Positions 18,954-64,000 are shown, numbered from the stretch's first letter. The stretch is 64,000 nt of DNA from Elusimicrobiota bacterium (GCA_016180425.1 JACPBF010000005.1:25034-89033); one strand, 5' to 3'. Notes: generated by a model from the sequence alone, not told the origin. Translations and numbers: made by a program.

Positions 18954-19611
18954 ACGTCATCGCCCTGTTTGTCTGAATCATCTACAGAGATAATCTGTTC
19001 TCCACCAGATTTAGTGACTTCTTCAAAAAACGCGGTTGGATTTGTTTTTAGATAGTGAATCATAGTCTCTATAATTTTTATCTTATGCGGATTAAACCTC
19101 TGTTCATTCAAATGATCTCCCACCTCTTTTCTTCTCTCATCTCCCGCGCTTTTGCTTAACCCTGATACTGCTCCTGCTTCCACCTTTAGTCCTGCCTGCT
19201 CTCCTGTCTGGGTTCCAGTCTCAGCCGCCCTTTCATCCAAACTCATTTCCAGTTCAACCCGTATTTGCTTTTGTATCTGTACTGTTCAGTCTAGAATGCG
19301 TTCATTTCGACGAGAACCCGAAGGGCAGCGTGCCACGGGCTTGCTCGTGGGTATCTATGATCGAAGCTCAGGCGAGGTTGTATACTCTGGAATTGAAATA
19401 CATAAAATGAATTCGCTGATTTAAAAAATCAACGAATTATTTGCGAGAACTGTGAGAAATTTCAACTAAAAAAGGGATTGCACCTTGAACTGGCATCAAA
19501 TTTGTTACAAAAACGTTACAGTTTGTTTAAGAAAAGTTTCGCTAAGACCATTATATTTATGCCATAGGGAAAATGGTTTAAGAAAAAAGATTGAAATGAA
19601 GTTTAAATTAG

Positions 19612-22600
19612 GTGGACAAAAAAATGAGTATTAAATTTTGGTTAGGGAAAAAGAATCGTAGCTGGTTGCAGCTCACAGGATGTGTGGTTGCGCTCAGCTT
19701 TTTGTTTAGTACGGTCAGCGTGCCTTTTGTAGAAGCTTCCTTGTGGGCAGAACGTAGGGAAGCGGCAAAAGACTTAAGAATTGATCAAGCTACCCTTATT
19801 GCGCAGCTTCCTGCTGTAAATAACCCTCTTCCTTATAATGTATCGAATAATTCTGGTCTTTTTGGTCATTCCAACTCTTCTTTTGGTCGTCATTCCCGCA
19901 AAAGCGGGAATCTAGCCAACATTACTTCTTTACTGGATTCCCGCTTTTGCGGGAATGACGACCTTATAAAGAACATAAGCTGGGTCACCAACCTTCCTAT
20001 TAATGTAGCTTCTTTACGGAAGGTCTCCATCCCCTCCACATGGAAAGTAGGGGATCCCATGGTGCTTTACGTACAAGATGCCCACTTAAACAAGGATGCC
20101 CAAACCAATATTGGGAAGTCTATTCAGCATTTTATTAATGAAGGAAAAGTAAATTTAGTGGCATTGGAAGGTGCCTTTAATCCCATAGACATTTCCCCCT
20201 TCCGCAAATTTGAAGATCAAAAGGTTGTTCATAAAGTAGCCGACTACTTACTTAGAGAGAACAAAATCTCTGGTGCCATCCACACCGCTTTCACCAGCCC
20301 CAAAGAAATTCCTTCTTTTGTAGGAGTGGATGACAAAGAACACTACTGGGCCAATGTGAACGCCTATAAGAGTTTATATCCCAAGGTAGATTCCTATAAA
20401 GAAAAGCTATCTAAATTGGTGAGTGGGCTCCAACAGGAAAAAGTCCATCACTTTAATCCAGAACTCTTAAATTTTGATAATAAGATAGAAGCGTATAGAG
20501 ACGGTAAAGAAAAATTGGGAGATTATATTCAGCTTTTAACTCATTACAATGTAAAAGAAAAGGGGACTGTCCCTTTAGGCACTGTCCCCTTTTCCCCGCA
20601 AGTAAAGACATTCCTAGAAACCCTAAAGATGGAACAATCCTTAGATTTTACCAAAGTAGAAAAAGAGAGAAGTTCTATTATAGAAAAGCTCGTTAAAACA
20701 CTCTCTAAAACCCAAATGCAAGAACTCTTAAACGCCAGCTTAGCCTACAGATTAGGCATCATTCAGCATACCGACTTTTATCTCTATGTAGAAGACCTGG
20801 CCAAAAGAAACAATATTAGCTTTACAGAATTCTCAGCCATGGGCGCCTACATCCGTTATTTAATTGCTTCGGATAAAATTAACGCCGAAAAACTCTTTGA
20901 TGAAGTAGCCCAATTAGAAGAAAAAGCCTACACAGCTTTAGCCAAAAGTAATGAAGAGAAACGATTAGTGGAAGAATCCAAATACTTCCACCTCTTAGGC
21001 AAACTCATTAATTCTTCCTTAACCCGCCAAGAGTGGAACCAATATGTTCAACTTACTGATCGTCATTCCCGCGAAAGCGGGAATCCAGAAAAGACAAAAC
21101 GTTGGCTAGATTACCGCTTTCGCGAGAATGACAGCCAAAACTTTGACCTCTCTTCTTTCGAAGCCTTCTACAAAGAATCCATCATCCGCGACGAAAAAAT
21201 TGCTTCCAACTTAATCCGTAATATTAAAGAAAAAAATACCCAAGTTGCCATGCTGGTCACCGGCGGTTTCCACTCCGATGGAGTAGAAGCAGCCTTACAC
21301 AAAAACAACATCGCCGTGATCTCCTACATCCCCAAGATTGCCAAACTAGACAACGCCAAAGGGAACGAATACTTAAGCGTCTTCACCCAAGAAAAAACCC
21401 CCCTCCAAAAACTTTTCGATGGAGAAAAACTCTTCTTACCTGCGGAAGTATTGTCGAACTCTGCTACATTCGAAGGCGCCTTCGCAACAAGTGTTTTGGG
21501 ATCCAAATCCCCAGAACAAATAGACCTAAATTTCGACAAAATGGTGGGATCCAATCAGTTCGACATCGTAAATGTAGAAGCTAAAGGAGAAGACAGAGTC
21601 GTTGAAGTAAAAGGCCAGCAAGGCACGGTTCAAACTACCATTGATCAAGAAGGCAACGAGATCGTCAAAATCTCTGAAGGCAAAGTGGAACGAATATCAA
21701 ACATCATTTCTCAAGTGAAGAGCTTTGTTCAGGAAGTAATTCGAGAATCCAAAAAATATTTAGGCTCCAGAGAATTTCAGGGAATCGCTGTTGCCACAGC
21801 TAAATATGTTGCATTGAGCTTCTATGGTTTACTGGTTCCTGTAATTGTTGCAATGACTTCTGCCAAACATAAAAAATTGCCTCCGCAAAGGAAGATCATT
21901 TGGAGATTCGAACGTCATTTAGTTTCTGCCAGTGAGGCTCTCGTAGTGGCCATAGAAAAAGCTTCAAAAGAATATCTCCATGTTAATGCTATCTATGAGT
22001 GTACTGTCCCACCCCTTAGTATGATCAATGAGATTAACCCTACGCTAGCAGGAAAATTAGGAAATATTAATGCCTATTCAGAAATTATAGATGACCCTCA
22101 AACCAGGAAAGAAATAGAAGATTTTCTAAACGAGTACTGGTGGCATTATGTTGATAATAAGCTTACATCTTTAAAAGAAAAAAAAGAAGTGCGATTTAAT
22201 CCTACGACAGTGCCTCTCTTTAATTATCTTGCACAACACCCTCAGGTTCATTTTTACCAAGAAAGAGTGCCCGTAGAGGCAGTGATATATAGCAAAGCTT
22301 ATGAAGCAGCACTTAAACAGGCGGAGCAATCCCTATATCATTCCGGGGAGGAGCAATCCCTATATCATTCCGGGGAGGAGCAATCCCTATATCATTCCGG
22401 GGACGAGGCGCTTTTTACTCATTGGATGTTTTTTGCTGGGTATTATTTTTGGCTATGTCAGGCCTATCGGGATAAAAAAGTTGTTTCTGATATAAAAGAA
22501 ATTATAACAAATGCACCTCCTTCCTCTGTTTTCGTGATAGGTCGTGGGGCTGCTCATGCAAGCAATTTATCATCCTTTATTGAAGAAAATAAAGATTATG

Positions 22601-24153
22601 AAGTGGAAGTGGCCATCGATCAGGATTGGTCAATCGAGGATTTTGGAGGTGTTTTATTCATACAGCTGAAATATCGCAAAGATTTCGAGACCGGGAAATC
22701 CCTCCCTTCCTCTGTCCGCAAAGATTTACTTAAGATGTTTCCCTATGATTGGGTTAGTGAGCTTATGGATACTTCCAAGGCCGATCCATATGAAAGAATG
22801 AAGTTACTTACGCAAATTTTTAACCAATTGGATGACGAGCAGGTATTTCAATTAACGCAGGGTTTGCTCTCCTCCCGCTTAGCAGAATTTCTAGAGAATG
22901 AACAAATTGGGTCCAAAGAAGGACAACCGAATTATGGCCGGGGTTTCTTCACTTTAATCTGGCTTAAAAGATATGGACTTTTAACATCTCATTTCGAGGA
23001 TTATCTTGACCCAGCTGTTAGAGAATCCTTAAACAATATAACGAATAAACAATCTTCTAGAGAAGATATTTCTCTTAATTCCACTACGCCAATTCCAACT
23101 TCTTCAAATTCAACACCTGCTCCCTTCAAAAAAATTCAGAATTTGCTTAAAGAAGAAGACGGGCAGGCGAAGGTGGAGGCCGGGGTTATTTTTGGAGCTA
23201 TTGCTGGATTAGCGGCGCCTGTTTTATTGCTCGTTGCAGGAGCAGCGGTGGGAGTTGGTGCTGCGGTGATTTATATTGCTAAGAAGGTGCAGCAAAAATA
23301 TAAAGCGCTTCAAACTAAATCTCAGGAAGAGAAAGTGGCAGTGGAAGTGGTAAGCGCCATTATGTTACTCAAGTCCGGTAAAAAGGTGGATCCAGCTTTG
23401 CTTTCTAAATCCATAAACACGGTATTGGCGGAGTTTAGTTTATCTCGCGACATACAAGTTCTAGATGGTTCTAACTCCATCTTGCAAGCGTTTGAGCATT
23501 TGGATGAAGCTAAATTGGAAGCTGCGCTTAAAGCAGAATTTAAGAAACAGTCGAAAGGAAGGCTTTCTAAAGAAGAAGTGTCGCGCTTAGCCACCCAAGT
23601 TCTCTACGAAGGGTACGATAAAAAGGCTTTGGAGCAGAGATTAGAGGCGGCCCATTTAGATGAGAATACATTGGTGGGAGCGGTGTTGGATCCTTTACAA
23701 AACCCCGTCACAAACGCCGAGAAACTCTTAGAGAAATTTAGAGAGGCTCAAGGAACAGAATCTAAAGCAACCTTAGTCTTTATGACTCAAGCGTTAACCC
23801 AGGCTCAAATGGATTCTATTCGCGATGAAGCCCCTGGAATAAAAGTTGAATTCAAAGTGAATGAAAACTTGTTTCGTTTAGCATCAGGGAATAAATATGA
23901 TCTAAAACTCGATATCTTAGAGAGCATCTTACAAAGCTATGAGGAGTCCAAGTTTACTTCATATCAGATGATTATCCCACAAACACTTATGGGGAATCTT
24001 TCCAGTTTAGGCAGCTTGCCGCAAGCTGCCCGTTTGCGTAGGGCTGCTATTATATTGGTGGATGAGGCGTTACGAGCAACGACCCCTATTCTCCAATTCC
24101 ACAACTTAGAACAAATCCGTCACATCGCCGAAGTTATCGCCCAACAGGCATAA
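19612..24153 (+). CDS. giant (1513 aa) membrane protein of unknown function
   Basis: Uninterrupted 4.5-kb ORF in AT-rich DNA. Hydrophobic segments at the N-terminus, about residue 730, and AGVIFGAIAGLAAPVLLLVAGAAVGVGAAVIYIA. No family confidently recognised. The track start at 19612 is GTG (gtggacaaaaaaATGagt); the first ATG, at 19624 (MSIKFW...), is an alternative start. Confidence 0.8.
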   Translation: MDKKMSIKFWLGKKNRSWLQLTGCVVALSFLFSTVSVPFVEASLWAERREAAKDLRIDQATLIAQLPAVNNPLPYNVSNNSGLFGHSNSSFGRHSRKSGNLANITSLLDSRFCGNDDLIKNISWVTNLPINVASLRKVSIPSTWKVGDPMVLYVQDAHLNKDAQTNIGKSIQHFINEGKVNLVALEGAFNPIDISPFRKFEDQKVVHKVADYLLRENKISGAIHTAFTSPKEIPSFVGVDDKEHYWANVNAYKSLYPKVDSYKEKLSKLVSGLQQEKVHHFNPELLNFDNKIEAYRDGKEKLGDYIQLLTHYNVKEKGTVPLGTVPFSPQVKTFLETLKMEQSLDFTKVEKERSSIIEKLVKTLSKTQMQELLNASLAYRLGIIQHTDFYLYVEDLAKRNNISFTEFSAMGAYIRYLIASDKINAEKLFDEVAQLEEKAYTALAKSNEEKRLVEESKYFHLLGKLINSSLTRQEWNQYVQLTDRHSRESGNPEKTKRWLDYRFRENDSQNFDLSSFEAFYKESIIRDEKIASNLIRNIKEKNTQVAMLVTGGFHSDGVEAALHKNNIAVISYIPKIAKLDNAKGNEYLSVFTQEKTPLQKLFDGEKLFLPAEVLSNSATFEGAFATSVLGSKSPEQIDLNFDKMVGSNQFDIVNVEAKGEDRVVEVKGQQGTVQTTIDQEGNEIVKISEGKVERISNIISQVKSFVQEVIRESKKYLGSREFQGIAVATAKYVALSFYGLLVPVIVAMTSAKHKKLPPQRKIIWRFERHLVSASEALVVAIEKASKEYLHVNAIYECTVPPLSMINEINPTLAGKLGNINAYSEIIDDPQTRKEIEDFLNEYWWHYVDNKLTSLKEKKEVRFNPTTVPLFNYLAQHPQVHFYQERVPVEAVIYSKAYEAALKQAEQSLYHSGEEQSLYHSGEEQSLYHSGDEALFTHWMFFAGYYFWLCQAYRDKKVVSDIKEIITNAPPSSVFVIGRGAAHASNLSSFIEENKDYEVEVAIDQDWSIEDFGGVLFIQLKYRKDFETGKSLPSSVRKDLLKMFPYDWVSELMDTSKADPYERMKLLTQIFNQLDDEQVFQLTQGLLSSRLAEFLENEQIGSKEGQPNYGRGFFTLIWLKRYGLLTSHFEDYLDPAVRESLNNITNKQSSREDISLNSTTPIPTSSNSTPAPFKKIQNLLKEEDGQAKVEAGVIFGAIAGLAAPVLLLVAGAAVGVGAAVIYIAKKVQQKYKALQTKSQEEKVAVEVVSAIMLLKSGKKVDPALLSKSINTVLAEFSLSRDIQVLDGSNSILQAFEHLDEAKLEAALKAEFKKQSKGRLSKEEVSRLATQVLYEGYDKKALEQRLEAAHLDENTLVGAVLDPLQNPVTNAEKLLEKFREAQGTESKATLVFMTQALTQAQMDSIRDEAPGIKVEFKVNENLFRLASGNKYDLKLDILESILQSYEESKFTSYQMIIPQTLMGNLSSLGSLPQAARLRRAAIILVDEALRATTPILQFHNLEQIRHIAEVIAQQA
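19885..19963. repeat. palindromic repeat element, copy 1 (in frame inside the giant ORF)
   Basis: The arms at 19885-19915 and 19933-19963 are reverse complements with one mismatch. Each arm contains ATTCCCGC-N4-GCGGGAAT. Confidence 0.85.
20562..20589. repeat. second palindromic motif family (GGGGACTGTCCC-type), in-frame copy
   Basis: GGGGACTGTCCCTTTAGGCACTGTCCCC, translated as KGTVPLGTVPF. A related reverse-complement copy lies at 24180-24207 and a half copy at 56396-56408. Confidence 0.55.
21058..21134. repeat. palindromic repeat element, copy 2 (diverged, in frame inside the giant ORF)
   Basis: GATCGTCATTCCCGCGAAAGCGGGAATCCAG (21058-21088) and the degenerate inverted arm CTAGATTACCGCTTTCGCGAGAATGACAG (21106-21134). 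Confidence 0.75.
22324..22404 (+). repeat. 27-bp x3 in-frame tandem repeat in the giant ORF
   Basis: GAGCAATCCCTATATCATTCCGGGGAG repeated at 22324, 22351 and 22378 (the last unit ends GAC). It encodes EQSLYHSGE x3. Confidence 0.95.
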
Positions 24154-24174: not shown

Positions 24175-24211
24175 AAAATGGGGACAGTCCCTAAAGGGAA
24201 AGTCCCCATTT
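24175..24211 (+). terminator. hairpin/terminator after the giant ORF, built from the GGGGAC...GTCCCC repeat
   Basis: AAAATGGGGAC...GTCCCCATTTT with inner stem TCCCT/AGGGA, 22 nt after the stop codon. Confidence 0.55.
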
Positions 24212-25139: not shown

Positions 25140-25297
25140 GGGTGTTACTCCTTTTCATAGGATTTGGGACAGGTACGTGAAACATTGGAGAAGTCAAGGG
25201 GGGCAAAAAAGAGTTGCATCTTTGTTACAAAAAGTTGAAAAAAAGTTTAATCCAAATCTTGAGCCGGTAGTAAAAAATTGGTCAAACTTTTTGGTAT

Positions 25298-39609: not shown

Positions 39610-39771
39610 TTTTTTGGTTTGATACATCAAATTCGTTCAAAGATTGTTTCTGAAAGGCGCAACGAACTTATCGCTGATATGTTCCATCGTATTCATTTTG
39701 TTGAGCGTTGGGGCAGAGGGATTAAATTGATACTGGACAAAGAACCATGTTATGCAAGTGTTATGTTTTGA
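39610..39771 (+). pseudogene. C-terminal fragment of an AlbA_2/HATPase_c_4-type (RecG-like) putative regulator
   Basis: Own translation: ...SERRNELIADMFHRIHFVERWGRGIKLILDKEP..., with no start codon. The open frame begins right after the stop at 39607-39609. It overlaps the 3' end of the convergent ATPase gene. Confidence 0.45.
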
Positions 39772-42406
39772 AGTGGTGTTTTAAGACACGCTCTATGCGC
39801 AAAAGGAGGATCTCTTTAGAAACAGGTTTTTTAATGTAGTCTTCAACTCCCAACTCTAGGCCGGCCATTTCATCTGTAGGTCCCGATTTTCCTGTAAAAA
39901 ATATCACCGGAGTTTGAATTCCCATTTCATTTTTTAGACGCATGAGTTTCATGCCATCCAAATGGGGCATTTCAATGTCGGATAAAATAATATCAAACTT
40001 CCCTTTCTCTAAAAGATCCAACGCCTCCACCCCATCTACCGCAGATGTAACAGCATAGTCCCGGACCCTAAGTAACTGTTCCAAAATGGCTCGTGTGTCC
40101 GCATCATCATCCACAATAAGGATGGAGTGACGGGCAATGGGTTGACTCGCTTCCAAAAAGGCGGAGGAGCTTCCCATCTTTATTTTTAAATCTGAAGGCG
40201 GAACAGCAGATTTTGGAATGGGAGGTTTTTGAACGGTGGGCTCCGGAACAGACGGTTTCGAAACAAAAAGGTTAGGCGCGGGAACCTGTATGGGAGATAG
40301 ACTCTCCCCCTCAATACTGCGGTAATATTCCGATTCGTCTGCCAGAACATCCTCTATAATGTCTTCTGGAGCGATCTCGAGATTTTTTACTTTCTCTACG
40401 GCGTGCTGATCTATAGTAAAATCACCGCGCTCTTTGGCGTATTTACGAATCTCCGAGATGGGCGCGTCCTGACGAATTAGGGCGGAAATCTCCGGATAGA
40501 AACGAATTATCTCATAGATTCCTGTGCGCCCCGAGTACCCTGTATTCTCGCACCTAGGGCAACCAACGGGTCTGGCCACTTTAGTGGGAAGTTCTCGGGC
40601 AAAAGGGGCCATAAGCCGAGACTCTTCATGAGTTAACGCAGAAAATTTCTTACAGTTATCACAAAGCTTCTTAACCAGAGTTTGAGCCACAATGCCCAAG
40701 ATGGTGTCTGCCATGGCGCTTCTTTGAATGCCTAATCTCTCCAAACGAAAAATGGCAGAAGTGGCGTTGCCCGTGTGCATGGTGGAAAGGGTTAAGTGGC
40801 CGGTACTTGCAAAGTCCAGTACGGTCTTTGCGGAAAACGAATCTCGTACCTCTCCTAAAAAGAGAATGTCTGGATCTTGTCGTACCGCACTTTTTAGAAG
40901 CGCTTCAAATGTAATTCCAGCTTTTTCGTTTACCTGCTGTTGTTTGGCGAGTGGGATTCTATACTCTACAGGATCTTCTACGGACATCAGGCTTCTTTTC
41001 TTGCAATCAATGTTGCTGAACAAACTATAAAGTGTCGTGGTCTTTCCAGTCCCCGTGGAACCTACAATGAGAACCAAACCCTGTCTCATATTGGAAAATT
41101 CAATCATATGCTTCGCTTGGAAAGGCGCCATTCCCAAATCTTCTAAACTTTTAGGACGGCTCCAAGGTTCGAGCAATCTCATCACAATACCTTCTCCATA
41201 GGGTGTTAAAGATGTGGCACAACGAATGGTGAGCGCTCTATTGGAGACGGTTACTTCAAAAGAACCGTCTTGCGGTTTCCTTTTTTCGGCAATGTCCATA
41301 TCGGCCATCGCCTTGTAGCGGGCAACCAACTTTGTATATTTACTATGATCCATCAGGAAAGCGTTGCGCATATCTCCATCCACACGAAACCGCACCACTA
41401 CATTCGACTCTCCCGGGTCTATATGGATATCGCTCGCCCTTTGAAGAACTGCCATATTAAGTACAAGAACGGAAAGTTTTGGGATCTCCACTCCAGAGAT
41501 ATCTTCTCCCTTAGAGATTCTAACCGCCATCTCTTGATCCGATTTATCCTGTCCACTCTCTTCTATTTTTAACAATGCCTCAATTGTGTCTGGTTCTGCA
41601 ATCAAAAACTTGGGATTTTTGGGTAGGGAAGGGTGTGTGCTTAAAAGCTCTATAACCTCTTCGTCAAATGGATTGCATAAGACAAAGACAGGATCGGTCT
41701 CCTTTCTCCAGCGTATCGCCAGAACTTTACTCTTTCGACAAAATATAATTGGCAGAATTTCTGGCAGGATTTCGTTGGGATCAATAATAGAGAGATACTC
41801 CAGTTCCAACGTTTTAGAAATCTGTTTGGCAACTTCTACTTTTGAAAAACCTAAACTAGATAAATGTGTGTAGAGATTCCGCGGGGACAAATCTTTGAGC
41901 TTTTTTTTCGCCTCTTCCGAAAGATCTGGATGATTTAAAAGAACCTCTTTATATTTAACAAAATTGCTGGAGTAGGCTGAGGGCTTTGCAGTTTCTTCTT
42001 GCTTCTTTAATTTCTCCCAAACTTTTCCAGTCTGGATATGTTTTTTTACAATATCGGATAGTTGTTTAAGATCAAACGTTTTAGAGAGATAGTCTACGGC
42101 GCCAACAGAAAATGCTTTCTGACGATTCACCTCAGTGTCTAAGGCGCTCAAAAAGATGACAGGCACATAGGCCATTTCCGGAGAAGATTTTATTTTTTCG
42201 CAGAGGGTATAGCCATCTATTTCTGGCATCATAATATCCGTAAAGATTAGGTTAGGAACCCGCCCGTCCAACACGCCTTGAATCTTGCTTACAAGATCGG
42301 CAGTCACAACCTCATACCCAGATTTTGTGAGATAGTGACTCACCAATGCTAAAACATTCTCATCGTCATCAATCGCTAAAATAAGAGGTTTGGAACTTTC
42401 GCTCAT
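39761..42406 (-). CDS. receiver - T2SSE_N - GspE/PilB-type secretion ATPase - receiver fusion protein
   Basis: N-terminal REC (ILAIDDDENV...FTDIMMPEIDG...FLSALD...YLSKTF). ATPase core (Walker A GSTGTGKTTT, DPDILFLGEVRD, GHLTLSTMHT, Zn motif CDNC...CPRC). C-terminal REC (ILIVDDDADT...LSDIEMPHLDG...FFTGKS...YIKKPV). Confidence 0.85.
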   Translation of the reverse strand: MSESSKPLILAIDDDENVLALVSHYLTKSGYEVVTADLVSKIQGVLDGRVPNLIFTDIMMPEIDGYTLCEKIKSSPEMAYVPVIFLSALDTEVNRQKAFSVGAVDYLSKTFDLKQLSDIVKKHIQTGKVWEKLKKQEETAKPSAYSSNFVKYKEVLLNHPDLSEEAKKKLKDLSPRNLYTHLSSLGFSKVEVAKQISKTLELEYLSIIDPNEILPEILPIIFCRKSKVLAIRWRKETDPVFVLCNPFDEEVIELLSTHPSLPKNPKFLIAEPDTIEALLKIEESGQDKSDQEMAVRISKGEDISGVEIPKLSVLVLNMAVLQRASDIHIDPGESNVVVRFRVDGDMRNAFLMDHSKYTKLVARYKAMADMDIAEKRKPQDGSFEVTVSNRALTIRCATSLTPYGEGIVMRLLEPWSRPKSLEDLGMAPFQAKHMIEFSNMRQGLVLIVGSTGTGKTTTLYSLFSNIDCKKRSLMSVEDPVEYRIPLAKQQQVNEKAGITFEALLKSAVRQDPDILFLGEVRDSFSAKTVLDFASTGHLTLSTMHTGNATSAIFRLERLGIQRSAMADTILGIVAQTLVKKLCDNCKKFSALTHEESRLMAPFARELPTKVARPVGCPRCENTGYSGRTGIYEIIRFYPEISALIRQDAPISEIRKYAKERGDFTIDQHAVEKVKNLEIAPEDIIEDVLADESEYYRSIEGESLSPIQVPAPNLFVSKPSVPEPTVQKPPIPKSAVPPSDLKIKMGSSSAFLEASQPIARHSILIVDDDADTRAILEQLLRVRDYAVTSAVDGVEALDLLEKGKFDIILSDIEMPHLDGMKLMRLKNEMGIQTPVIFFTGKSGPTDEMAGLELGVEDYIKKPVSKEILLLRIERVLKHHFKT

Positions 42407-46430: not shown

Positions 46431-46453
46431 TCTCTTTCGCGGGAATGACGGCG
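46431..46453. repeat. single degenerate arm of the ATTCCCGC-N4-GCGGGAAT element (intergenic)
   Basis: TCTCTTTCGCGGGAATGACGGCG, between the cheA stop and the cheC-like start. Confidence 0.5.
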
Positions 46454-48077: not shown

Positions 48078-49160
48078 TTAAATCTTCGCCTCTTTAGCCC
48101 GGACAAGATCGTTTAGAGCCTCTGCAATTCCCTCTAGGGCCAAAACCCGATCCACCACACCCGCCTCAATCGCGGAGCGAGGCATCCCAAAAATTAATGC
48201 GTCTTTATCCTGAGCTATGGTAGTTCCTTGAGCTGCCCTAATCGCTTTCATCCCTTCGGTACCGTCCTTTCCAATTCCGGAGAGAATCACGCCCACTGTA
48301 TTGGATCCGTAGAGCTTCACAACAGCACACATCGCGCGGTCAATAGACGAATTCAAATCTAATTTTTCTTCTTTAAGAGTGATCGTAACAGAATTGGCAT
48401 TCCTCCCGCTTTCGCGGGAATAACGATCCTGCGCTAAACGCCTGTGAAAATTCAGATTAAATTCAGGAATTGCCAAATAAACTGTGCCAGCCTCCAATAG
48501 TTCTTGATCTTCAATGACCTTCACTTTTAAGGGATAGTTTTTGTTGAGACGTTCCGCATAACTTTCTACAAAAAAGGAGCTGGGCATATGCTGAACCACA
48601 AGAATGGGGCAAGGGTAGCCCTCCGGAAGTAGGGAGAGAATTTTTTCCACAGATTGCGGGCCTCCTGTAGAAGCGCCAATCACAATGATTTTGCTGTGGC
48701 TAATTCTAGGATGCCTTAATTTTTGAAGTCCGTGGCGTTCACTTTGTTTTAGCTTGTTGCGAGAGACTTGCGAGACCGCCTTCACTGTTTCTAGAATCTC
48801 GGTTTTAACGGTCTCTATATCTAAAGAAAGCTCCCCGGAAGGCTTGGGTACAAAAGCCACGGCGCCAGCTGCCAAGCATTCAAATGTGCTAGTCGCGTCT
48901 TTTTTCGCAAGCGCTGAAAGAATAATCACAGGGGTTGGGTGGGTGGCCATAATGGTTTCTAAAGTCGTAAGTCCACTCTCACCCGGCATGACTAAATCTA
49001 ATGTGACGCAGTCGGGCCTAAACATCTCTAATTTCAAGAGCGCTTCAGAACCGCATTTTGCAGTTTCAATGGCGGAAATTTCGGGATCAGAGGCGAGGAT
49101 GTCAGTGATTAATGTGCGCATAGTAAAGGAATCATCCACAACCAAAACACGGAGAGACAC
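48078..49160 (-). CDS. cheB: protein-glutamate methylesterase CheB (REC + esterase)
   Basis: REC (VLVVDDSFTMR, LDLVMPGESG, FVPKP) and catalytic Ser/His/Asp motifs (GASTGGPQ, VVQHMP, GIGKDG). GTG start. Confidence 0.9.
   Translation of the reverse strand: MSLRVLVVDDSFTMRTLITDILASDPEISAIETAKCGSEALLKLEMFRPDCVTLDLVMPGESGLTTLETIMATHPTPVIILSALAKKDATSTFECLAAGAVAFVPKPSGELSLDIETVKTEILETVKAVSQVSRNKLKQSERHGLQKLRHPRISHSKIIVIGASTGGPQSVEKILSLLPEGYPCPILVVQHMPSSFFVESYAERLNKNYPLKVKVIEDQELLEAGTVYLAIPEFNLNFHRRLAQDRYSRESGRNANSVTITLKEEKLDLNSSIDRAMCAVVKLYGSNTVGVILSGIGKDGTEGMKAIRAAQGTTIAQDKDALIFGMPRSAIEAGVVDRVLALEGIAEALNDLVRAKEAKI
48396..48426. repeat. single arm of the palindromic element, in frame inside cheB
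   Basis: GGCATTCCTCCCGCTTTCGCGGGAATAACGA. Translated on the minus strand as ...DRYSRESGRNA..., in a loop that is about 10 aa longer than the E. coli CheB sequence as recalled. Confidence 0.55.
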
Positions 49161-50179: not shown

Positions 50180-53100
50180 TTAATTCCTCTCGGCCTTGCT
50201 ATTTTTAGCGCCTTCCACAACCTTAAACCTTTTTAAGGCTGTCCTCAATTCTTCAGCCAGCGTAGAAACATTTTGCGCGGAAGTGGACATCTGCTGCATG
50301 GAAGTGGTCTGTTGCTGAATGGCCGTGGACATCTGTTCCGCGCCGACAGCGGCCTGTTCCGATGTGGATGCGATCTCTTCCGTGGTTTTGGCTACGGCTT
50401 GAGCGCCGCCAGCCTGTTCGGATGTGGCCTTAGAAATGTCTTGGGCTTTTGTCGTTATTTCCTGGGCGCCCACCCCGATCTGATCTAAAATGCCCAGCGC
50501 TTGGTTAACGATCTCTATGGACTCCGTGACTTGCTGGGTACCTGCCGTCATCCCACCCACAACATCTGTTGTGGACTCTACAATCGTACCGACCATTCCC
50601 TCAATTTGCACCGCCGCTTTTTTGGTTCCTTCAGCGAGTTTGCGAATCTCGTCGGCCACAACCGCGAATCCTCGGCCCGCCTCTCCCGCGCGCGCAGCTT
50701 CAATGGCCGCGTTTAAAGCCAAGAGATTGGTTTGATCTGCAATATCTTTTGTGGTGCCTACGATCACGCCAATTTCTTTGGCTCGCTTATCCAAATCTTT
50801 TACTGTGCCTGTATTCGCTTTCACGATGTCGTCAATAGATTTAAGCCTAGTGGCAGCCTGTTTTCCAGCCTCGCTTCCACGTTGAGCCAGTTTTGACGCT
50901 TCTTGTGTTACCTCCGCGGCAGAGCGCGCATTCAAGGCTCCTTGCTGGATTGACTTGGAAAGTTCTGTAATAACCCTCGTGCTTCCTTCCAATTTCTTCG
51001 ATTGATCCTTGGCGCCCACTGCGATTTGTTGTGTTGTCTTGGCTGCGGCGGACAACGCGGTGTTGACCTGCTGCGAAGATTCAGCTAATTGACCGGAAGC
51101 AGACGACACTTTTACAGAACTGTCTATCGCAAGCCGTATCAAAGCTCCCAAATCATCGAAGGACTTGTTTAATGCGTCCGCCAATGTGCGAATGTCCCCT
51201 CGGGTTTCAATCGCCATCTGTTGCGAGAGATCCCCTTGGGAGAGTGCCACAGCTAATCGAATAACTTCCTGCACAGGGGTTGCGATAGAATTAATTAATT
51301 CGTTTAGGGTGTCCACAATATTTTTCCAACTGCCACCCACTCCCTCCACCTTGGCCCGTTCATTTAGCTTTCCCTCTTTTCCAGCCACTTGAGCCACACG
51401 CGACACTTCGTTGGCGAGCCGATTCAAGTCATCTACCATCTTGTTCAGTGTGTTCTTAAGCTCGAGTATCTCACCCTTTACATCCACGGTTATTTTTTGG
51501 GTCAGATCCCCGGCGCTAATGGCTGTAGAGACTTGCGCTATGTTTCGAACCTGTGAGGTAAGGTTAGCGGCCATGGTATTCACATTGTCAGTCAGGTCCT
51601 TCCAAGTTCCTGCCACTCCGGGCACTGCGGCCTGTCCGCCAAGTTTTCCATCCGTACCTACTTCGCGGGCCACACGCGTAACCTCGGCCGAGAAGAGATT
51701 GAGGTTGTCCACCATCTTATTGAGAGTTTCTTTAAGCTGTAGAATCTCTCCTTTAACCTCTACCGTGATCTTTTGTTTCAAATCTCCATTTGCAACCGCA
51801 GTGGCCACTTGCGCGATATTGCGCACTTGCCCTGTGAGATTGGAAGCCATGGCATTCACATTATCTGTGAGATCTTTCCATGTTCCTGTTACTCCAGGGA
51901 CTGCAGCCTGTCCGCCAAGTTTTCCATCTGTACCTACTTCACGAGCCACACGTGTAACTTCGGCTGCAAATATATTGAGACTGTCCACCATCCTGTTGAT
52001 TGTCTCCTTAAGTTGAAGAACTTCCCCCTGCGCTTCCACAGTAATCCTTTGAGCGAGATCTCCTTTGGCGACTCCGGTAGCCACTTGCGCTATGTTACGA
52101 ACCTGATTGGTTAGGTTAGTAGCCATGGCATTCACCCGATCAGTTAAATCTTTCCAAGTGCCTGCGACCCCGGGAACTTGAGCTTGACCTCCAAGCTTTC
52201 CTTCAGTGCCCACCTCGCGGGCCACACGCGTAACCTCGGCTCCGAAAACATTTAGACCGTCCACCATCTTATTGATAGTTTCTTTAAGCTGTAGAATCTC
52301 CCCTTTAACTTCCACGGTGATCTTCTGTCCCAGATCTCCATTGGCGACAGCAGTTGTAACCTGCGCGATATTGCGCACTTGGCTTGTAAGATTGGAAGCC
52401 ATGACATTCACATTGTCTGTGAGCTCCTTCCACGTACCCGTAACACCCATCACCGAAGCTTGTCCGCCAAGTTTTCCATCTGTACCCACTTCCCTCGCCA
52501 CACGTGTAACCTCGGATGCAAATACGTTAAGGCTGTCCACCATCCTGTTGATTGTCTCCTTAAGTTGAAGAACTTCCCCCTGCGCTTCCACAGTAATCCT
52601 TTGAGCGAGATCTCCCCTAGCCACTGATGTAGCCACTTGAGCGATGTTTCGCACCTGATTGGTTAAATTGGTGGCCATCGCATTTACGCGGTTGGTCAAT
52701 TCTTTCCAAGTGCCGGCCACACCGGGCACTTCAGCCTGGCCTCCAAGCTTCCCTTCAGTTCCCACTTCCCGTGCCACGCGCGTAACCTCGGCCGAGAAGA
52801 GATTGAGGTTGTCCACCATCTTATTGAGAGTTTCTTTAAGCTGTAGGATCTCACCTCGTACTTCCACAGTGATTTTTTGAGCCAGGTCTCCGTTAGCAAC
52901 AGCTGTGGCCACTTGCGCTATGTTACGAACCTGCAATGTAAGGTTCGTAGCCATCGCGTTCACGTTGTCCGTCAGTTCCTTCCAAGTTCCCGTAACACCC
53001 GGCACAACCGCTTGGCCTCCGAGTTTTCCTTCCGTCCCTACTTCTTTTGCGACACGGGTTACTTCCCCTGAAAAAGCCCGTAGATTGTCCACCATCTTAT

Positions 53101-54448
53101 TGATGGTATCTTTAAGCTGAAGTATCTCACCTTTCACATCCACAGTGATCTTCTGACCAAGGTCCCCATTCGCCACTGCTGTAGAGACTTGAGCAATGTT
53201 ACGGACTTGATTCGTAAGGTTTTCCGCCATAGCATTTACGTTGTCGGTGAGCTCCTTCCAAGTCCCCGTAACACCAGGCACAGCCGCTTGGCCTCCGAGT
53301 TTACCTTCAGTTCCTACTTCCTTAGCAACGCGTGTCACCTCCGTTGAGAATGACCGGAGGTTGTCCACCATTCGGTTGATGGTGTTCTTAAGCTCCAAAA
53401 CTTCTCCTCTAACTTCTACGGTAATCTTCTGCGCCAAGTCTCCATTCGCCACCGCGGTGGTTACTTGAGCAATGTTTCGCACTTGACTCGTAAGATTTTC
53501 CGCCATAGCATTCACACGGTTCGTGAGCTCTTTCCAAGTGCCCGCTACTCCAGGCACATCCGCCTGACCTCCCAGTTTCCCTTCTGTGCCCACTTCCCTC
53601 GCCACACGGGTAACCTCAGAAGCAAAAATATTCAGGTTATCTACCATTTTATTGATGGTGTTCTTAAGTTCCAACACCTCACCCTTCACGTCCACAGTAA
53701 TTTTCTGAGCTAGATCTCCATTAGCGACTGATGTGGTTACTTGGGCGATGTTTCGCACTTGATTCGTTAGATTTTCCGCCATAGCATTCACACTATCAGT
53801 GAGCGCCTTCCATGTCCCGCCCACACCAGGCACAGCCGCTTGGCCACCCAGTTTTCCTTCGGTTCCTACTTCTTTTGCAACGCGCGTCACCTCCAATGAA
53901 AAAAGATTAAGGCTGTCCACCATTTTGTTGATGGTATTCTTCAGTTCCAAGACTTCTCCTTTTACATCCACTGTAATCTTTTGTGTGAGGTCTCCATTGG
54001 CAACCGCTGTGCTTACTTGCGAAATATTGCGCACTTGGCTTGTAAGATTGGCAGCCATGGCGTTTACATTATCTGTCAGCTCCTTCCACGTGCCTGTGAC
54101 GCCGGGCACCGCTGCCTGGCCGCCAAGTTTCCCCTCCGTTCCCACTTCTTTGGAAACACGGGTTACTTCGGATGTAAAAATAGAAAGATTCTCCATCATG
54201 CCGTTATAAGAATCCGCAATCTCCCCAAATATGTCGTAACCTTGTCTTCTCAGACGTTTGGTGAGATCCCCTCTGCGAACTGCCTCTATCGCTTCCAACA
54301 ATTCTCTTAACTGTTGCTCCATTCTATGATTCCCTGGTCCCTCTAAAGTAGCTGGCTCGGGTTCAAAAGTGCCGGCGCTGGTTCCAACCCCTTCTTCCCT
54401 ATTTGGAAAAAATGGTCTGCTTACGCGATTTCTTTCAGGTATGGACAT
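50180..54448 (-). CDS. soluble poly-HAMP methyl-accepting chemotaxis protein (1422 aa)
   Basis: No hydrophobic segment. Ten near-identical 92-aa HAMP-pair units plus one degenerate unit, then the MCP signalling domain ([36 protein letters not shown]). AAGGAGG SD upstream. Confidence 0.9.
51410..54169. repeat. 10 x 276-bp in-frame tandem repeat array (HAMP-pair units)
   Basis: Unit boundaries were derived from the protein (residues 94-1013, units starting EVTRVxxEVGT[ED]GKLGGQ). Exact DNA identities of 83 nt at a 552-bp offset and 67 nt at a 1104-bp offset. Confidence 0.9.
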
Positions 54449-54464: not shown

Positions 54465-55364
54465 TTATGATAATGATTTTGCGATTTCGTTTTTCAATAT
54501 AGTTTCTGAATGACCCCACGTATCCCGATGACAGCTGTTCAATACTTCCTTAGCGATATTTCTATATACTTTCCCCACATTGGAATGAGGCGCCCAATGG
54601 GAAATGGGTAATCCTTTCATCTGCGCCCCGTAAATTTGTCGTGAAAATGGAATGGGGACAATGGGAACATGCGCGAGGTCATTGGATGAGAAAAAGGTTT
54701 TCACCATCTTAAAAACCTCCTGCGAGACAGACCGATCGAGAAAGTCATTGGAGAAGCCCTTCACTAATATCATAAACACATTCACCTTTACGCCTAGCGT
54801 GTTCGAAAGATTTATCACGATTGTCTTTAACGTATCGAGAGCCTCGCAAGCAAATACGCCTGAATCCATTGGGATAATCAAATCTTCAGCGGCGGCAATC
54901 CCATTCATCATAAGCATGGTAGAGCCCGGAGGAACATCAATTAAAATGTAATCATATAAAATCGCAATTTCCTTAAGACGCTCATCTAGAATGCTCACCT
55001 GATCCATCCGGCCGGCCATCTCCATATCGGCAGAAAGAAGGTCCGCAGTGGAAGGCGCTACATGCACTCCGGAAAGGGTCTCAACGATGACCTCTTTAAA
55101 AAATTTTTCACTTCGAAGCACATCATAGAGAGAACCCTCCAGTGTTGATCGATCCACGCCTAATCCCGCTGTGCTATTCCCCTGTGGATCCAGATCCACA
55201 ACCAACACTTTCTTACCCATCTTAACAAGCCATCCAGCCACATTCAGACAGGAGGTCGTCTTTCCTGTCCCTCCCTTATGATGCACAAAAGCAATAATCT
55301 TTCCCCTTTTCGAATTATTTAATGTTGTTGTGAAACTATTTCTCACTGGATTAATTCCATTCAT
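54465..55364 (-). CDS. ParA/MinD-family ATPase, first gene of the chemosensory operon (PpfA/ParC-like by context)
   Basis: Deviant Walker A in [24 protein letters not shown] and Walker B LIDVPPG. The 16-nt gap to the MCP gene contains its SD. Confidence 0.85.
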
Positions 55365-55540: not shown

Positions 55541-55597
<57 letters not shown>

Positions 55598-56245: not shown

Positions 56246-56326
56246 CAGGCTACTAAAAAACCATGAATTTTTAAAAATCAATGGTTTTTCAACAGCCTGC
56301 TAATACATTTATAGCAATACAGCAGG
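56246..56326. other. nested and mutually exclusive hairpins in the ORF-free region
   Basis: CAGGCT (56246-51) pairs with AGCCTG (56294-99), enclosing AAAAAACCAT (56255-64) / ATGGTTTTT (56281-89). The alternative pairing is CCTGCT (56296-301) with AGCAGG (56321-26), followed by TTTTTA. Confidence 0.4.
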
Positions 56327-56732
56327 TTTTTATCAACGATAAAATTTGCATATTATCGCTTTGATAATTCGGCTTCCACAACAATAAATAGTTTTCGGGA
56401 CTGTCCCCTAACGGCCTGAACTCTCGCTGTCTACTCCTCAATCTGCAGGTTACCCTGCCGACTGCAAGACTCGCTACTAGACTGCTTTACTATTCACTTT
56501 ATCTAGGTGGGATTTGCACCCACTAGAATCGTTTGTAGGTTTCTAGCTCTTTTGCCTTCCCCCTACCTAGGCTTCTTAGAACGCGTATTACCTACGTTCA
56601 TTGACACGGCAAAAAGTTACAAAAACTTTACATTTTGTTGAAGAAAAGTTTCGGCATCTTGAACTATCTTTAACATTAGGAGAAGAGCTATGACTCTTGT
56701 TGGGGAGTATCTTTTCTTAAGCGAGGTTTGGT

Positions 56733-57191
56733 ATGAAGAATACCAAGAAAAAGCGCTGCGAATTCTGCCATCGCTGGTTCCTGCCGGATTACCGCGCCGC
56801 CACACACCAATACTGCTGTTCGAATGAGAACTGCCGCAGACAGCGCAAATTAAATACACATAGGGAATGGATATTTCGTCATCCAAATTATGACGAGAGC
56901 AGGCGCCCTAAAATTAAGCTATGGGCTAAAAACTCATTCTATTGGATTAAATGGCGCGCGGCTCACCCAGGCTATAGACGAAGAGAGAAATATCGAATTC
57001 AATGTAAACCTAATGGATCAAAAAATGGCGCAAAACAAGACTCGATCGGTCAATTTACCGACGGGAACATCCATAATACTCTGCAAAATCTAACGAAAAT
57101 CGTCGCAAAACAAGACCTGATCCTCCGTCGAACAAATTCCTTATTTCAGTCATTTATTGGAAATTTTTCCTCGCAAAACAAAACAATATAG
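56733..57191 (+). CDS. small basic protein with N-terminal Cys-rich (zinc-ribbon-like) motif
   Basis: KKKRCEFCHRWF...THQYCCSNENCRRQRK; 152 aa with GAGG upstream. No family recognised. Preferred over the overlapping antisense ORF 56617-56886. Confidence 0.5.
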   Translation: MKNTKKKRCEFCHRWFLPDYRAATHQYCCSNENCRRQRKLNTHREWIFRHPNYDESRRPKIKLWAKNSFYWIKWRAAHPGYRRREKYRIQCKPNGSKNGAKQDSIGQFTDGNIHNTLQNLTKIVAKQDLILRRTNSLFQSFIGNFSSQNKTI

Positions 57192-62373: not shown

Positions 62374-62691
62374 ATGAAACTTAAGAAGTCATTTGAAAGC
62401 TTAAAATTGTTTGCGTCTGTAGTTTCGCTGTTCGTTTTAAATGCAGCGAACCTCTGGGCAGACTTAGGGAATGTGAATGAAAATACACTGAAAGAGTCTA
62501 TCGGGAGAGTGATCGGTCTCATTTCTGGGATCGCAGCTCCAGTGGTATTAGCCTTAGGCCTATTGGTTGGCGGCATCAAATACCACAATGGAGACGAGGA
62601 AGCGATAAGTTATATCAAGGGCGGAATTATTGGCGCCATCCTTGCCGGAGGGGCTTGGGGAATTTCTAAGTGGCTCTTAACTGCATTCTAA
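62374..62691 (+). CDS. TrbC/VirB2-like type IV secretion pilin
   Basis: 105 aa. Long leader ending NLWA|DLG, then two hydrophobic helices (VIGLISGIAAPVVLALGLLVGGI and GGIIGAILAGGAWGI) separated by a short charged loop. Confidence 0.55.
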   Translation: MKLKKSFESLKLFASVVSLFVLNAANLWADLGNVNENTLKESIGRVIGLISGIAAPVVLALGLLVGGIKYHNGDEEAISYIKGGIIGAILAGGAWGISKWLLTAF

Positions 62692-62692
62692 A

Positions 62693-62965
62693 ATGGAATT
62701 AGCTACTTATCCAAAACTTAATTTGCCAACTAAACGATTTGGAATTGAGTCTGGGGATTGGATTTGGGTTTCCGTCTCCATGTTCCCAGGTCTTCTATTC
62801 AAATCGTTCCTCTTATTTATCGTTTGTTTCTTCTCCGCTTACTTTTACGCTTCGAAGATCAAACCCAAGAAACCAAGAGGATGGTTATCTGGCTGGATTG
62901 AGTTTCAATTAAGCCCAAAGAAATTCATAGCGCAATTAGAAGTAAATAAAAATTCCTTAAAATGA
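62693..62965 (+). CDS. TraL/VirB3-like small membrane protein
   Basis: 90 aa. PKLNLPTKRFGIESGDW, then a TM helix, then KIKPKKPRGWLSGWIEF, resembling the F-type TraL layout. ATGA overlap with the next gene. Confidence 0.4.
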   Translation: MELATYPKLNLPTKRFGIESGDWIWVSVSMFPGLLFKSFLLFIVCFFSAYFYASKIKPKKPRGWLSGWIEFQLSPKKFIAQLEVNKNSLK

Positions 62966-64000
62966 GCTCAATAACTTATAAAGATATTAACTTGCTGGGA
63001 ATAAACGACGGGATCATCACCGGTTTAAGCGGTGAAGCCGGCTTGTCTTTTGAGTTATTCCCGCAAATGGATCTTCGAATGTGCCCGTCAGCGGAACATC
63101 CAGCGTTTGTCTCCGGATTCTCTCGACTTTTAAGTTGCCTTCCTCCGTCTTATGGACTTATGTTCGAAGCAGAAGTAAACCGTGGTTCAAATCTATCTAT
63201 GGAGATCTGCGGAAATGGCATCCACCCCATCTTGAAGAAAATACAGAATGAGAAATCAGAACGGTGGTCTAGAGTAGGGCGCAGTGTCCGTCACTATGCG
63301 CATCTATGGTCAAGCGGCCTAAACCCTCTTAAACTCCGCATGCTCCCCTCGCTTATGCCTTCAAAAAATAAACAGAAATCACTTCAACAAAAACTTGAGG
63401 AAAACGAATCTAGCATTATTGAATTGAGCTCCACACTCGCTTCTTCCCTAAATTCCTGCGGAGTTTCAAGCCGAATTCTTAGCTCTCAAGAAATTTTAGA
63501 GAGATATTGGACTGTCCTTTGTCCAACAAAATCAATTATTCATGATTTTCTAAATATTGATCCAAGCTTTTCTTTGCGCAGCCAATTGGCCTGCTCTAAT
63601 AGCGAAGAAAAATCTAACTATTTTTATATGGATGGCATGTACCACACAACTTTTTCATTTTATACCTATCCAGATGAAATTTCTTTGGGAGCGCTGGACA
63701 ACTTAATCGAGATTCTCCCTCTTGGAACAAGATATCTATTTTCCGTTTTGGCACCTGACCAAGAAGAGTTTATAGAAAGTTTGAAAGTTCAGAGAAGAAG
63801 AACCGTTGCTCTTTTAGGAGAAGCAAAGACAAAAGATTACGAATCTGAAGCCCGCGAAAATGATTTAGACACTATTATCACCCGCTGTAGAAATGAAGGC
63901 GAGAGAATCTACGTGGTTTGGGCAGCGTTGATTTTGCGATCCCCAGAATTGGCCAACTTATTAGAGTGGCAAAAACAGCTCCTATTTACTACAAGGGAAA
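62962..64000 (+). CDS. VirB4/TraC-like protein, N-terminal part (runs off the window)
   Basis: Own translation from ATG at 62962 (MSSITYKDINLLGINDGIITGLSGEAGLSFELFP...YFYMDGMYHTTFSFYTYPDEISLGALDNLIEILP...). 346 codons without a stop. Position after the pilin and TraL-like genes supports the call. The Walker motifs would lie beyond the window. Confidence 0.5.
   Translation, partial: MSSITYKDINLLGINDGIITGLSGEAGLSFELFPQMDLRMCPSAEHPAFVSGFSRLLSCLPPSYGLMFEAEVNRGSNLSMEICGNGIHPILKKIQNEKSERWSRVGRSVRHYAHLWSSGLNPLKLRMLPSLMPSKNKQKSLQQKLEENESSIIELSSTLASSLNSCGVSSRILSSQEILERYWTVLCPTKSIIHDFLNIDPSFSLRSQLACSNSEEKSNYFYMDGMYHTTFSFYTYPDEISLGALDNLIEILPLGTRYLFSVLAPDQEEFIESLKVQRRRTVALLGEAKTKDYESEARENDLDTIITRCRNEGERIYVVWAALILRSPELANLLEWQKQLLFTTRE

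Follow-up and report, generated by a model that had tools for sequence, protein, structure and literature searches.

In-frame reading of CGTC-1-type hairpin repeat dimers by a giant gene of an Elusimicrobiota bacterium

Selfish hairpin repeats that are tolerated in frame inside genes are an already described phenomenon. Among the repetitive extragenic palindromes (REPs), Di Nocera, De Gregorio and Rocco (BMC Genomics 2013, 14:522, PMC3733652) defined the CGTC-tagged REPs, in which the CGTC-1 family is recognized by a CGTC tag, an 8-bp stem whose first letters are AT, a loop of 4 nt and a CCA tail. It occurs mostly as head-to-head dimers, and the tag, CGTC or TGTC, is unpaired and terminates the stem-loop on one side. 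According to these authors, the Neisseria repeat dRS3 belongs here, as does the Rickettsia palindromic element (RPE) RPE-6 of Rickettsia conorii, whose in-frame copies encode CHSRESGNP, DSRFRGND, VIPAKAGI and SFPRKRES...LDSRFRGND. Intragenic CGTC-1 dimers encode 20-30 residues, and certain open reading frames (ORFs) have been hit twice (PMC3733652). Here we report further members of this family in 64,000 nucleotides of DNA (the window) from an Elusimicrobiota bacterium (GCA_016180425.1, JACPBF010000005.1:25034-89033), where two palindromic dimers, elements A and B, are read in frame by one giant gene and additional, decayed units lie in cheB and between genes. All coordinates refer to the 64-kb window, counted from its first letter.

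Three strands of literature deal with the same DNA: the CGTC REPs and RPE-6, presented as having 'no dedicated transposase' (2013); REP doublets forming hairpins (REPINs) in Neisseria, with a REP-associated tyrosine transposase (RAYT) (2022); and the Neisseria Transformation Sequence (NTS) with its enzyme Ssn (2025). In the second, Bertels and Rainey treated the Neisseria 21-mer ATTCCCGCGCAGGCGGGAATC as a REPIN population. In the third (Nat Commun 2025, PMC11893778), NTS is given as CGTCATTCCCGCGMAVGCGGGAATCYRG, and SsnA, a 94-aa protein consisting of a single GIY-YIG domain, binds NTS and cuts nearby, on single-stranded DNA (ssDNA) only, and lowers transformation by NTS-bearing DNA. The same study found ssn genes flanked by the NTS motif in many genomes, and showed ssDNA-only binding and cutting by the cognate Ssn for the Neisseria and Wolbachia homologues only. 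The three strands do not cite one another. As the 2025 study makes no reference to the work on CGTC REPs, RPEs or REPINs, a connection between them has apparently not been made in the literature examined.

In the window, the core ATTCCCGC-N4-GCGGGAAT with up to three mismatches is matched five times against 0.20 expected, a number that none of 100 shuffled sequences reached. The 28-nt NTS consensus, at up to six mismatches, likewise retrieves five units (with 0, 1, 1, 3 and 6 mismatches) and none in each of 20 shuffles, and the half-site TTYGCGGGAATGACG has seven matches against 0.24 expected, including an intergenic one without mismatch at 46436-46450. Altogether, six units are distributed over four sites of the window (Table 1), and none was found in the adjoining 10 kb on the right. 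A possible seventh unit at 63053-63067 turned out to be a half-site only (14/25 by manual count) and was excluded from the tally. The units have a common anatomy, with a CGTC tag, an 8-bp stem formed by ATTCCCGC and GCGGGAAT, a 4-nt loop (GAAA or AAAA) and a CCA or CTA tail. CGTC stands 5' of the stem in both units of A, in the left unit of B and in the relic at 46.4 kb; the tag reads TGTC in the right unit of B and CGTT in the cheB unit.

Element A comprises two 31-nt arms with a gap of 17 nt between them, and the complementarity extends further, to 88% across 40 nt (19876-19915 and 19933-19972, 17 nt apart). Its two units are perfect mirror images, and both carry a non-consensus loop change (AAAA/TTTT). 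Element B has the same build, its arms being 89% complementary across 27 nt. For each of them as ssDNA, a single long hairpin is predicted, of -38.3 kcal/mol for A (z -13.7) and -23.1 kcal/mol for B (z -7.5). An original prediction, made from the sequence, had reported these palindromes; the sequences that it quoted were recovered in the window where it placed them, and its reading of the elements is essentially right. It had also described B as a diverged second copy, and the copy is real, although it is inverted relative to A (86% match across 81 nt when inverted, 76% when direct). Moreover, the spacer of A, TAGCCAACATTACTTCTTTACTG, agrees at 20/25 positions (manual count) with that of B once the latter is reverse-complemented. 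With both arms and spacer thus common to the two elements, on opposite strands, the whole dimer including its spacer is the repeated unit in this genome, and both intact copies are dimers of a + unit followed by a - unit. No target-site duplication was visible at A or B, where the 31-nt arms act as inverted termini. A survey of the flanks of 236 units for a conserved insertion target or target-site duplication gave nothing beyond position -1, which is conserved as a pyrimidine; the TTTTGG common to the flanks of A and B may be due to chance.

Judged from its sequence, the window repeat is the CGTC-1 REP, that is, dRS3, NTS and RPE-6, also called the 'Ssn-related motif'. The tag, the 8-bp stem starting with AT, the 4-nt loop, the tail and the head-to-head dimers of CGTC-1 are all present, and the translations of the repeat equal, in a comparison at the peptide level only, the peptides of the R. 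conorii CGTC-1 (RPE-6) copies. The peptides SRFRGND and HSRESGNP, which the original prediction had mentioned, appear in the published listing for R. conorii (PMC3733652), and the likeness to Rickettsia elements that it proposed as an analogy is closer than that, CGTC-1 being RPE-6 and giving the same in-frame peptides. The identity with NTS and the Ssn-related motif, together with the candidate partner enzyme that comes with it, goes beyond what was known to that prediction.

Like the described CGTC-1 copies, those of the window include intragenic dimers, encode the same peptides and have hit one ORF twice. Elusimicrobiota, however, lies outside the five phyla listed in 2013 (PMC3733652), so that the CGTC-1/NTS repeat is extended here to this phylum, and three of the four sites are intragenic (a small sample), although in most genomes only a small share of the copies lies inside genes. 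With the Neisseria dRS3/NTS, the window shares the 28-nt consensus, which the left unit of B reproduces identically, and a published N. gonorrhoeae sequence contains the same 25-mer as element B in the same dimer form. In contrast, only 2% of the N. meningitidis copies lie inside genes, the repeats being grouped in intergenic mosaics (PMC11893778), and no ssn gene was found in the examined part of this genome (the window and 10 kb on its right). The likeness to the RPEs consists of in-frame insertion in functional genes, which gain peptide segments that their orthologues are without. RPE-6 is CGTC-1 itself, RPE-4 belongs to the sister family CGTC-4, and the textbook element RPE-1 is a longer and different palindrome. 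The hosts also differ, Rickettsia being an obligate intracellular alphaproteobacterium and the present organism belonging to a groundwater Elusimicrobiota lineage.

The giant ORF translates A and B in frame, as GRHSRKSGNLANITSLLDSRFCGNDD and DRHSRESGNPEKTKRWLDYRFRENDS, each of which adds 26 aa to the protein. Only one of the six frames is free of stops in A and two of the six in B, and in each case the ORF uses an open frame. The reading of both elements by a 1513-aa ORF had been proposed before and was confirmed, although the gene probably starts at the ATG downstream of the GTG (Table 1). Its product is one of a family of giant proteins in Elusimicrobiota that have the N-terminal ∼600 aa conserved, with a weak ChaN/Tiki/EreA-like signal; a fold search with the N-terminal domain returned nothing significant (best, erythromycin esterase EreC, E 0.12). 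Homologues from Elusimicrobiota metagenome-assembled genomes are 35-48% identical over a stretch that covers 31-47% of the query at its N-terminal end. When this region was aligned with MAFFT, both 26-residue segments proved to be missing from 18/18 homologues, including the closest one (P0002, 43% identity), and they fall in linkers of variable length on both sides of which the conserved blocks run on in frame. Similarly, the CheB structures 6ymz and 7esg show gaps of 10-11 residues exactly where the present cheB reads the repeat. As both segments of the giant protein are missing from the homologues and lie in variable linkers, they are lineage-specific insertions, as had been anticipated; an ancestral protein motif, which would have been indicated by the same peptides in orthologues, is ruled out by the 18-homologue alignment. 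Residues 5-644 were modelled with AlphaFold from an alignment of the 18 homologues (mean predicted local distance difference test, pLDDT, of 72; 414 residues at ≥70). The model places element A (model residues 88-113) inside a stretch (51-111) with pLDDT <50, and element B in a dip in which successive blocks score 63, 51 and 64 against 85-95 around it. The inserted segments are thus modelled in flexible loops, where the original prediction had proposed to look for them.

Other palindromes and repeats were noted in the same protein family. The homologues P0008, P0007 and P0028 have different inserts at the element B linker, which may be a recurrent landing site, and we take the insert of P0008, KNLDIEKGEILHYVQDGKPF, to be similar to what another widespread hairpin repeat would encode. 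Unrelated to the CGTC-1 repeat is a second palindrome family, with the core GGGGAC(A/T)GTCCC, which has eight matches in the window against 0.42 expected. One of these copies is translated in frame within the giant ORF, giving KGTVPLGTVPF in a loop that is variable and of low pLDDT. Hence A, B and this stretch, all three palindrome-encoded segments, are found in low-pLDDT loops of an otherwise confident model. Another copy of the GGGGAC family, 89% complementary to the first, forms a terminator-like hairpin 23 nt past the stop of the giant ORF, and a third lies inside a group II intron match (see later). The giant ORF also contains three nearly perfect tandem 27-nt copies, encoding EQSLYHSGE three times, which look like a recent in-frame expansion.

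Table 1. Repeat elements, host genes and other features located in the window
Feature	Position	Strand	Description
Giant-protein host gene	19612..24153	+	1513 aa from GTG; 1509 aa from ATG at 19624
Element A	19885..19963	+	Head-to-head hairpin dimer, assigned to CGTC-1/NTS; ORF aa 92-117
A units	left 19888-19915, right 19933-19960		Each with 1 mismatch to 28-nt NTS consensus
Element B	21058..21136	-	Same dimer family, inverted relative to A; ORF aa 483-508
B left unit	21061-21088		NTS consensus match 28/28
B right unit	21106-21133		3 mismatches to NTS consensus, stem weakened
cheB host gene	48078..49160	-	Receiver domain and CheB methylesterase domain
cheB unit	48396..48428	-	Decayed single unit, assigned to CGTC-1; 6 mismatches to NTS consensus
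Relic	46431..46453	+	One stem half and tag (TTCGCGGGAATGACG) kept; intergenic, between cheA and CheC/CheX-like gene
GGGGAC(A/T)GTCCC copy	20558-20593		In giant ORF
GGGGAC(A/T)GTCCC copy	24176-24211		Terminator-like hairpin
GGGGAC(A/T)GTCCC copy	56396-56408		Inside group II intron match
27-nt tandem copies	22323-22407		In giant ORF
Group II intron match	56326-56516	-	Rfam RF02005, D1-D4
38-nt motif	19504-19541		Upstream of giant ORF
38-nt motif	56616-56653		Upstream of ORF 56733
38-nt motif, weaker	25221-25250
T2SSE fusion gene	39761-42406	-	Secretion ATPase fused to receiver-domain sequence
Chemotaxis protein gene	50180-54448	-	1422 aa, tandem 276-nt repeats
(TGTC) microsatellite	55543-55597		13.8 copies
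Secretion/conjugation genes	62374-64000		Continue in adjoining 10 kb (L122 6241-16214)

An inserted segment of this kind could also be produced if contigs of different organisms had been joined at a highly abundant repeat. The repeat is indeed extremely abundant: in the groundwater runs, which contain 93-98% of the sampled words of the window, the bins with the repeat reach word depths of 4425x and 64610x, against 11-16x for the flanks, and over 19600-21400 the short-read Logan contigs end at the repeat (runs X1, X4, X5 and X6). However, element A is crossed without a single difference by an independent 1772-nt Logan contig, and both A and B are flanked by conserved blocks of the protein family that remain collinear and in frame, which makes an assembly artefact extremely improbable. 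A joint that skips from 19964 to 21060 was seen in a single contig, with 26 letters on the short side, and its simplest explanation is another locus at which units lie side by side. The abundance of the repeat in groundwater communities will nonetheless fragment assemblies and may mislead binning.

The remaining two sites hold the single arms of the original prediction. The unit in cheB is as described, with 25 nt that are 96% complementary to 21058-21082; it is translated as DRYSRESGRN (aa 245-254, nt 48399-48428), and the giant ORF reads the repeat in this same frame. The intergenic copy is also present, although it keeps one stem half only, and it is nested in a local 13-nt inverted repeat with a local hairpin of -16 kcal/mol (z -4.5).

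Decay is thus seen in the right unit of B, the cheB unit and the 46.4-kb unit, with A intact, and this raises the possibility that the copies are immobile relics, or structural sites used by the host, which no longer spread: ancient hairpins retained as targets limiting the recombination of incoming ssDNA, as NTS does in Neisseria, as mRNA hairpins or as integration targets. This would be consistent with the absence of a polymorphic empty site in the metagenome contigs, with the lack of any repeat unit in 43 kb around two homologous loci of other Elusimicrobiota and in the 10 kb beside the window, and with the function shown in Neisseria, which is the control of transformation and not mobility (PMC11893778). 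We nevertheless consider it very unlikely. The perfect mirror images formed by the A units, including the loop change, suggest recent copying or homogenization; the spacer common to A and B implies at least one duplication of a whole dimer in this lineage; and a host function hardly explains insertion into coding loops.

Beyond this genome, the exact 25-mer CGTCATTCCCGCRAAAGCGGGAATC was found in at least 120 stretches of species-representative genomes, which together with the window counts bears out the expectation that the element is repeated elsewhere. Assigned by record titles, these stretches come from at least ∼14 phyla of very different base composition. The matches listed (120 loci, selected for the repeat) include Alpha-, Beta- and Gammaproteobacteria, Magnetococcales, Dehalococcoidia, Anaerolineales, Nitrospirota, Verrucomicrobia, Terriglobia, Peribacteria, Wolfebacteria, Rikenellaceae, Desulfobulbaceae, Syntrophaceae, Desulfuromonadales, Binatia, Phycisphaerae, Gemmatimonas, Latescibacterota and Poribacteria. 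Among them, real dimers of a + unit followed by a - unit (57, after removal of 10 self-overlaps) outnumber the opposite arrangement (11). The arms are constant and the spacers, of 10-64 nt, are lineage-specific, the same spacer recurring within a genome or genus; a metagenome scan for the dimer spacer specific to the present lineage gave no match. Of the 258 units in these other genomes, no more than 16 (≤6%) are found well inside long ORFs, and since several such ORFs are questionable the true figure may be lower. The presence of the same 25 bases in at least ∼14 phyla that differ in base composition points to a strong constraint on the sequence from a partner enzyme, frequent horizontal spread or a combination of the two.

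An all-versus-all comparison of the ORFs in the 120 repeat-selected loci yielded one recurrent family of small ORFs only, which is the ssn-like GIY-YIG family. A hidden Markov model (HMM) built from three of these ORFs (the ssn type being cd10448 GIY-YIG, ∼95 aa) scored positive in 5/120 loci, from an Anaerolineales, two Proteobacteria, one Alphaproteobacterium and one Peribacterium, and in two of these five the gene is split across reading frames; a regular expression for the GIY-YIG motif missed the ssn ORFs because their first residue varies. The association was also seen from the other side. In 80 metagenome loci picked solely because they encode an ssn relative, 70 contain the repeat (≤4 mismatches). 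Within 400 nt of ssn, it precedes the gene in 51 loci and follows it in 62, and 45 loci have it in both places; the median distance is 40 nt on the upstream side and 24 nt on the downstream side. The nearest pair is most often arranged as NTS(+)-ssn-NTS(-).

The elements also have the anatomy of REPINs, with two inverted REPs and a short spacer forming one long hairpin, an inverted doublet as the replicating unit and a lineage-specific master sequence. They could, therefore, be REPINs in the strict sense, that is, REP doublets copied by a single-copy RAYT of the IS200/IS605 family encoded elsewhere in the genome, as the Neisseria 21-mer would suggest. The tag, however, is CGTC instead of the GTAG typical of RAYT-linked REPs, and among the tyrosine-transposase genes of CGTC-positive species none was found to have CGTC units on its flanks (PMC3733652). 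In agreement with this, a phmmer search with the E. coli RayT, a query that may miss distant RAYTs, found no RAYT in the window, the 120 repeat loci or the 80 ssn loci, where ssn was found repeatedly, and no RAYT flanked by the same REP was seen in the sequence examined. A protein search with the RayT query returned Enterobacteriaceae only and was uninformative. These data favour Ssn over RAYT as the partner, and we regard strict REPINs as an unlikely explanation.

The explanation that we prefer, with a probability of roughly 0.78, is that A and B are CGTC-1 REP dimers, that the cheB and 46.4-kb copies are decayed units of the same family, and that this family is selfish and served by an Ssn-type partner, the copies seen being those that survived in permissive loops. 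CGTC-1 repeats would then be selfish elements that are non-coding and non-autonomous. The dimer, together with the spacer typical of its lineage, would be copied as a unit within a lineage and, as ssDNA, would fold into one long hairpin; the common spacer of A and B shows that such copying took place in this lineage. Since ssn genes typically lie between NTS(+) and NTS(-), the short dimer looks like that unit minus the gene. For this genome, the partner enzyme is most likely an Ssn-type single-domain GIY-YIG nuclease encoded elsewhere, and we infer that Ssn, or indeed any enzyme, moves the repeat. The intragenic copies would be the survivors of selection, namely those that comprise whole codons (26), offer a stop-free frame and landed in a tolerant loop, a combination that would add a harmless peptide and leave the gene unbroken. 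All three are found in the window, which is one more case of a known phenomenon and a clean natural example of what an insertion into coding sequence needs to survive. The inserted peptides are presumably neutral.

Several observations weigh against this explanation. What has been demonstrated for SsnA is the cutting of ssDNA and an effect on transformation, and no transposition (PMC11893778); as it cuts the forward orientation only, a complete pathway of excision and insertion would be hypothetical. No ssn homologue was detected with the HMM at E ≤1 in the window or in loci L122-L126, which include the 10 kb on its right, and Bertels and Rainey tie the Neisseria version of the repeat to a Group 2 RAYT, NMAA_0235. 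Furthermore, the genome is sampled at four sites only, the source metagenome contigs hold no empty-site allele, and neither a target-site duplication nor an exact insertion boundary could be defined.

A bolder proposal, which we put forward only tentatively and consider rather doubtful, is that the Ssn-linked CGTC-1 dimer is an active non-autonomous element spreading horizontally in groundwater communities, and that Ssn is the long-sought mobilizing enzyme of the whole CGTC REP superfamily, including RPE-6. We keep it in view because of the occurrence in at least ∼14 phyla, the repeat depth of hundreds to thousands of times that of the flanks, and the 3/4 intragenic sites here against ≤6% elsewhere. 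If it were true, the CGTC-1 dimer would land mostly in coding loops in gene-dense genomes, the present one among them, and would quite generally supply large modular proteins with new peptide segments.

Other features of the window were recorded (Table 1). The group II intron match reaches 52.8 bits (gathering score 49) over the full model length; it lies in a 1.4-kb stretch without an ORF of ≥120 aa, and no D5/D6 match was found at the gathering threshold. A 38-nt motif, GTTACAAAAAC(G/T)TTACA(G/T)TTTGTT(T/G)AAGAAAAGTTTCG, occurs in two copies that are 92% identical and in a third, weaker one. Each of the two better copies precedes an ORF by ∼80 nt, one the giant ORF and the other the ORF at 56733, which lies ahead of the gene for a 1296-aa Kelch-repeat protein; the motif is probably a shared promoter or operator. 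The perfect (TGTC) microsatellite, in a region without an ORF of ≥120 aa between the ORFs ending at 55364 and starting at 56733, could be a slippage-prone switch.

The 1422-aa methyl-accepting chemotaxis protein (MCP) is encoded with ∼10 tandem 276-nt repeats, of 70-85% identity, which specify 10-11 HAMP domains ahead of the MCP signalling domain. Adjoining the che cluster, a type II/IV secretion ATPase (T2SSE) is fused to receiver-domain sequence in which two Response_reg stretches are recognized, the better one at the C-terminal end. Finally, the right end of the window and the adjoining 10 kb carry type IV secretion/conjugation genes, encoding a TrbC-like pilin, a VirB4/TraC ATPase, TrbI and a TraG/TrwB coupling protein.

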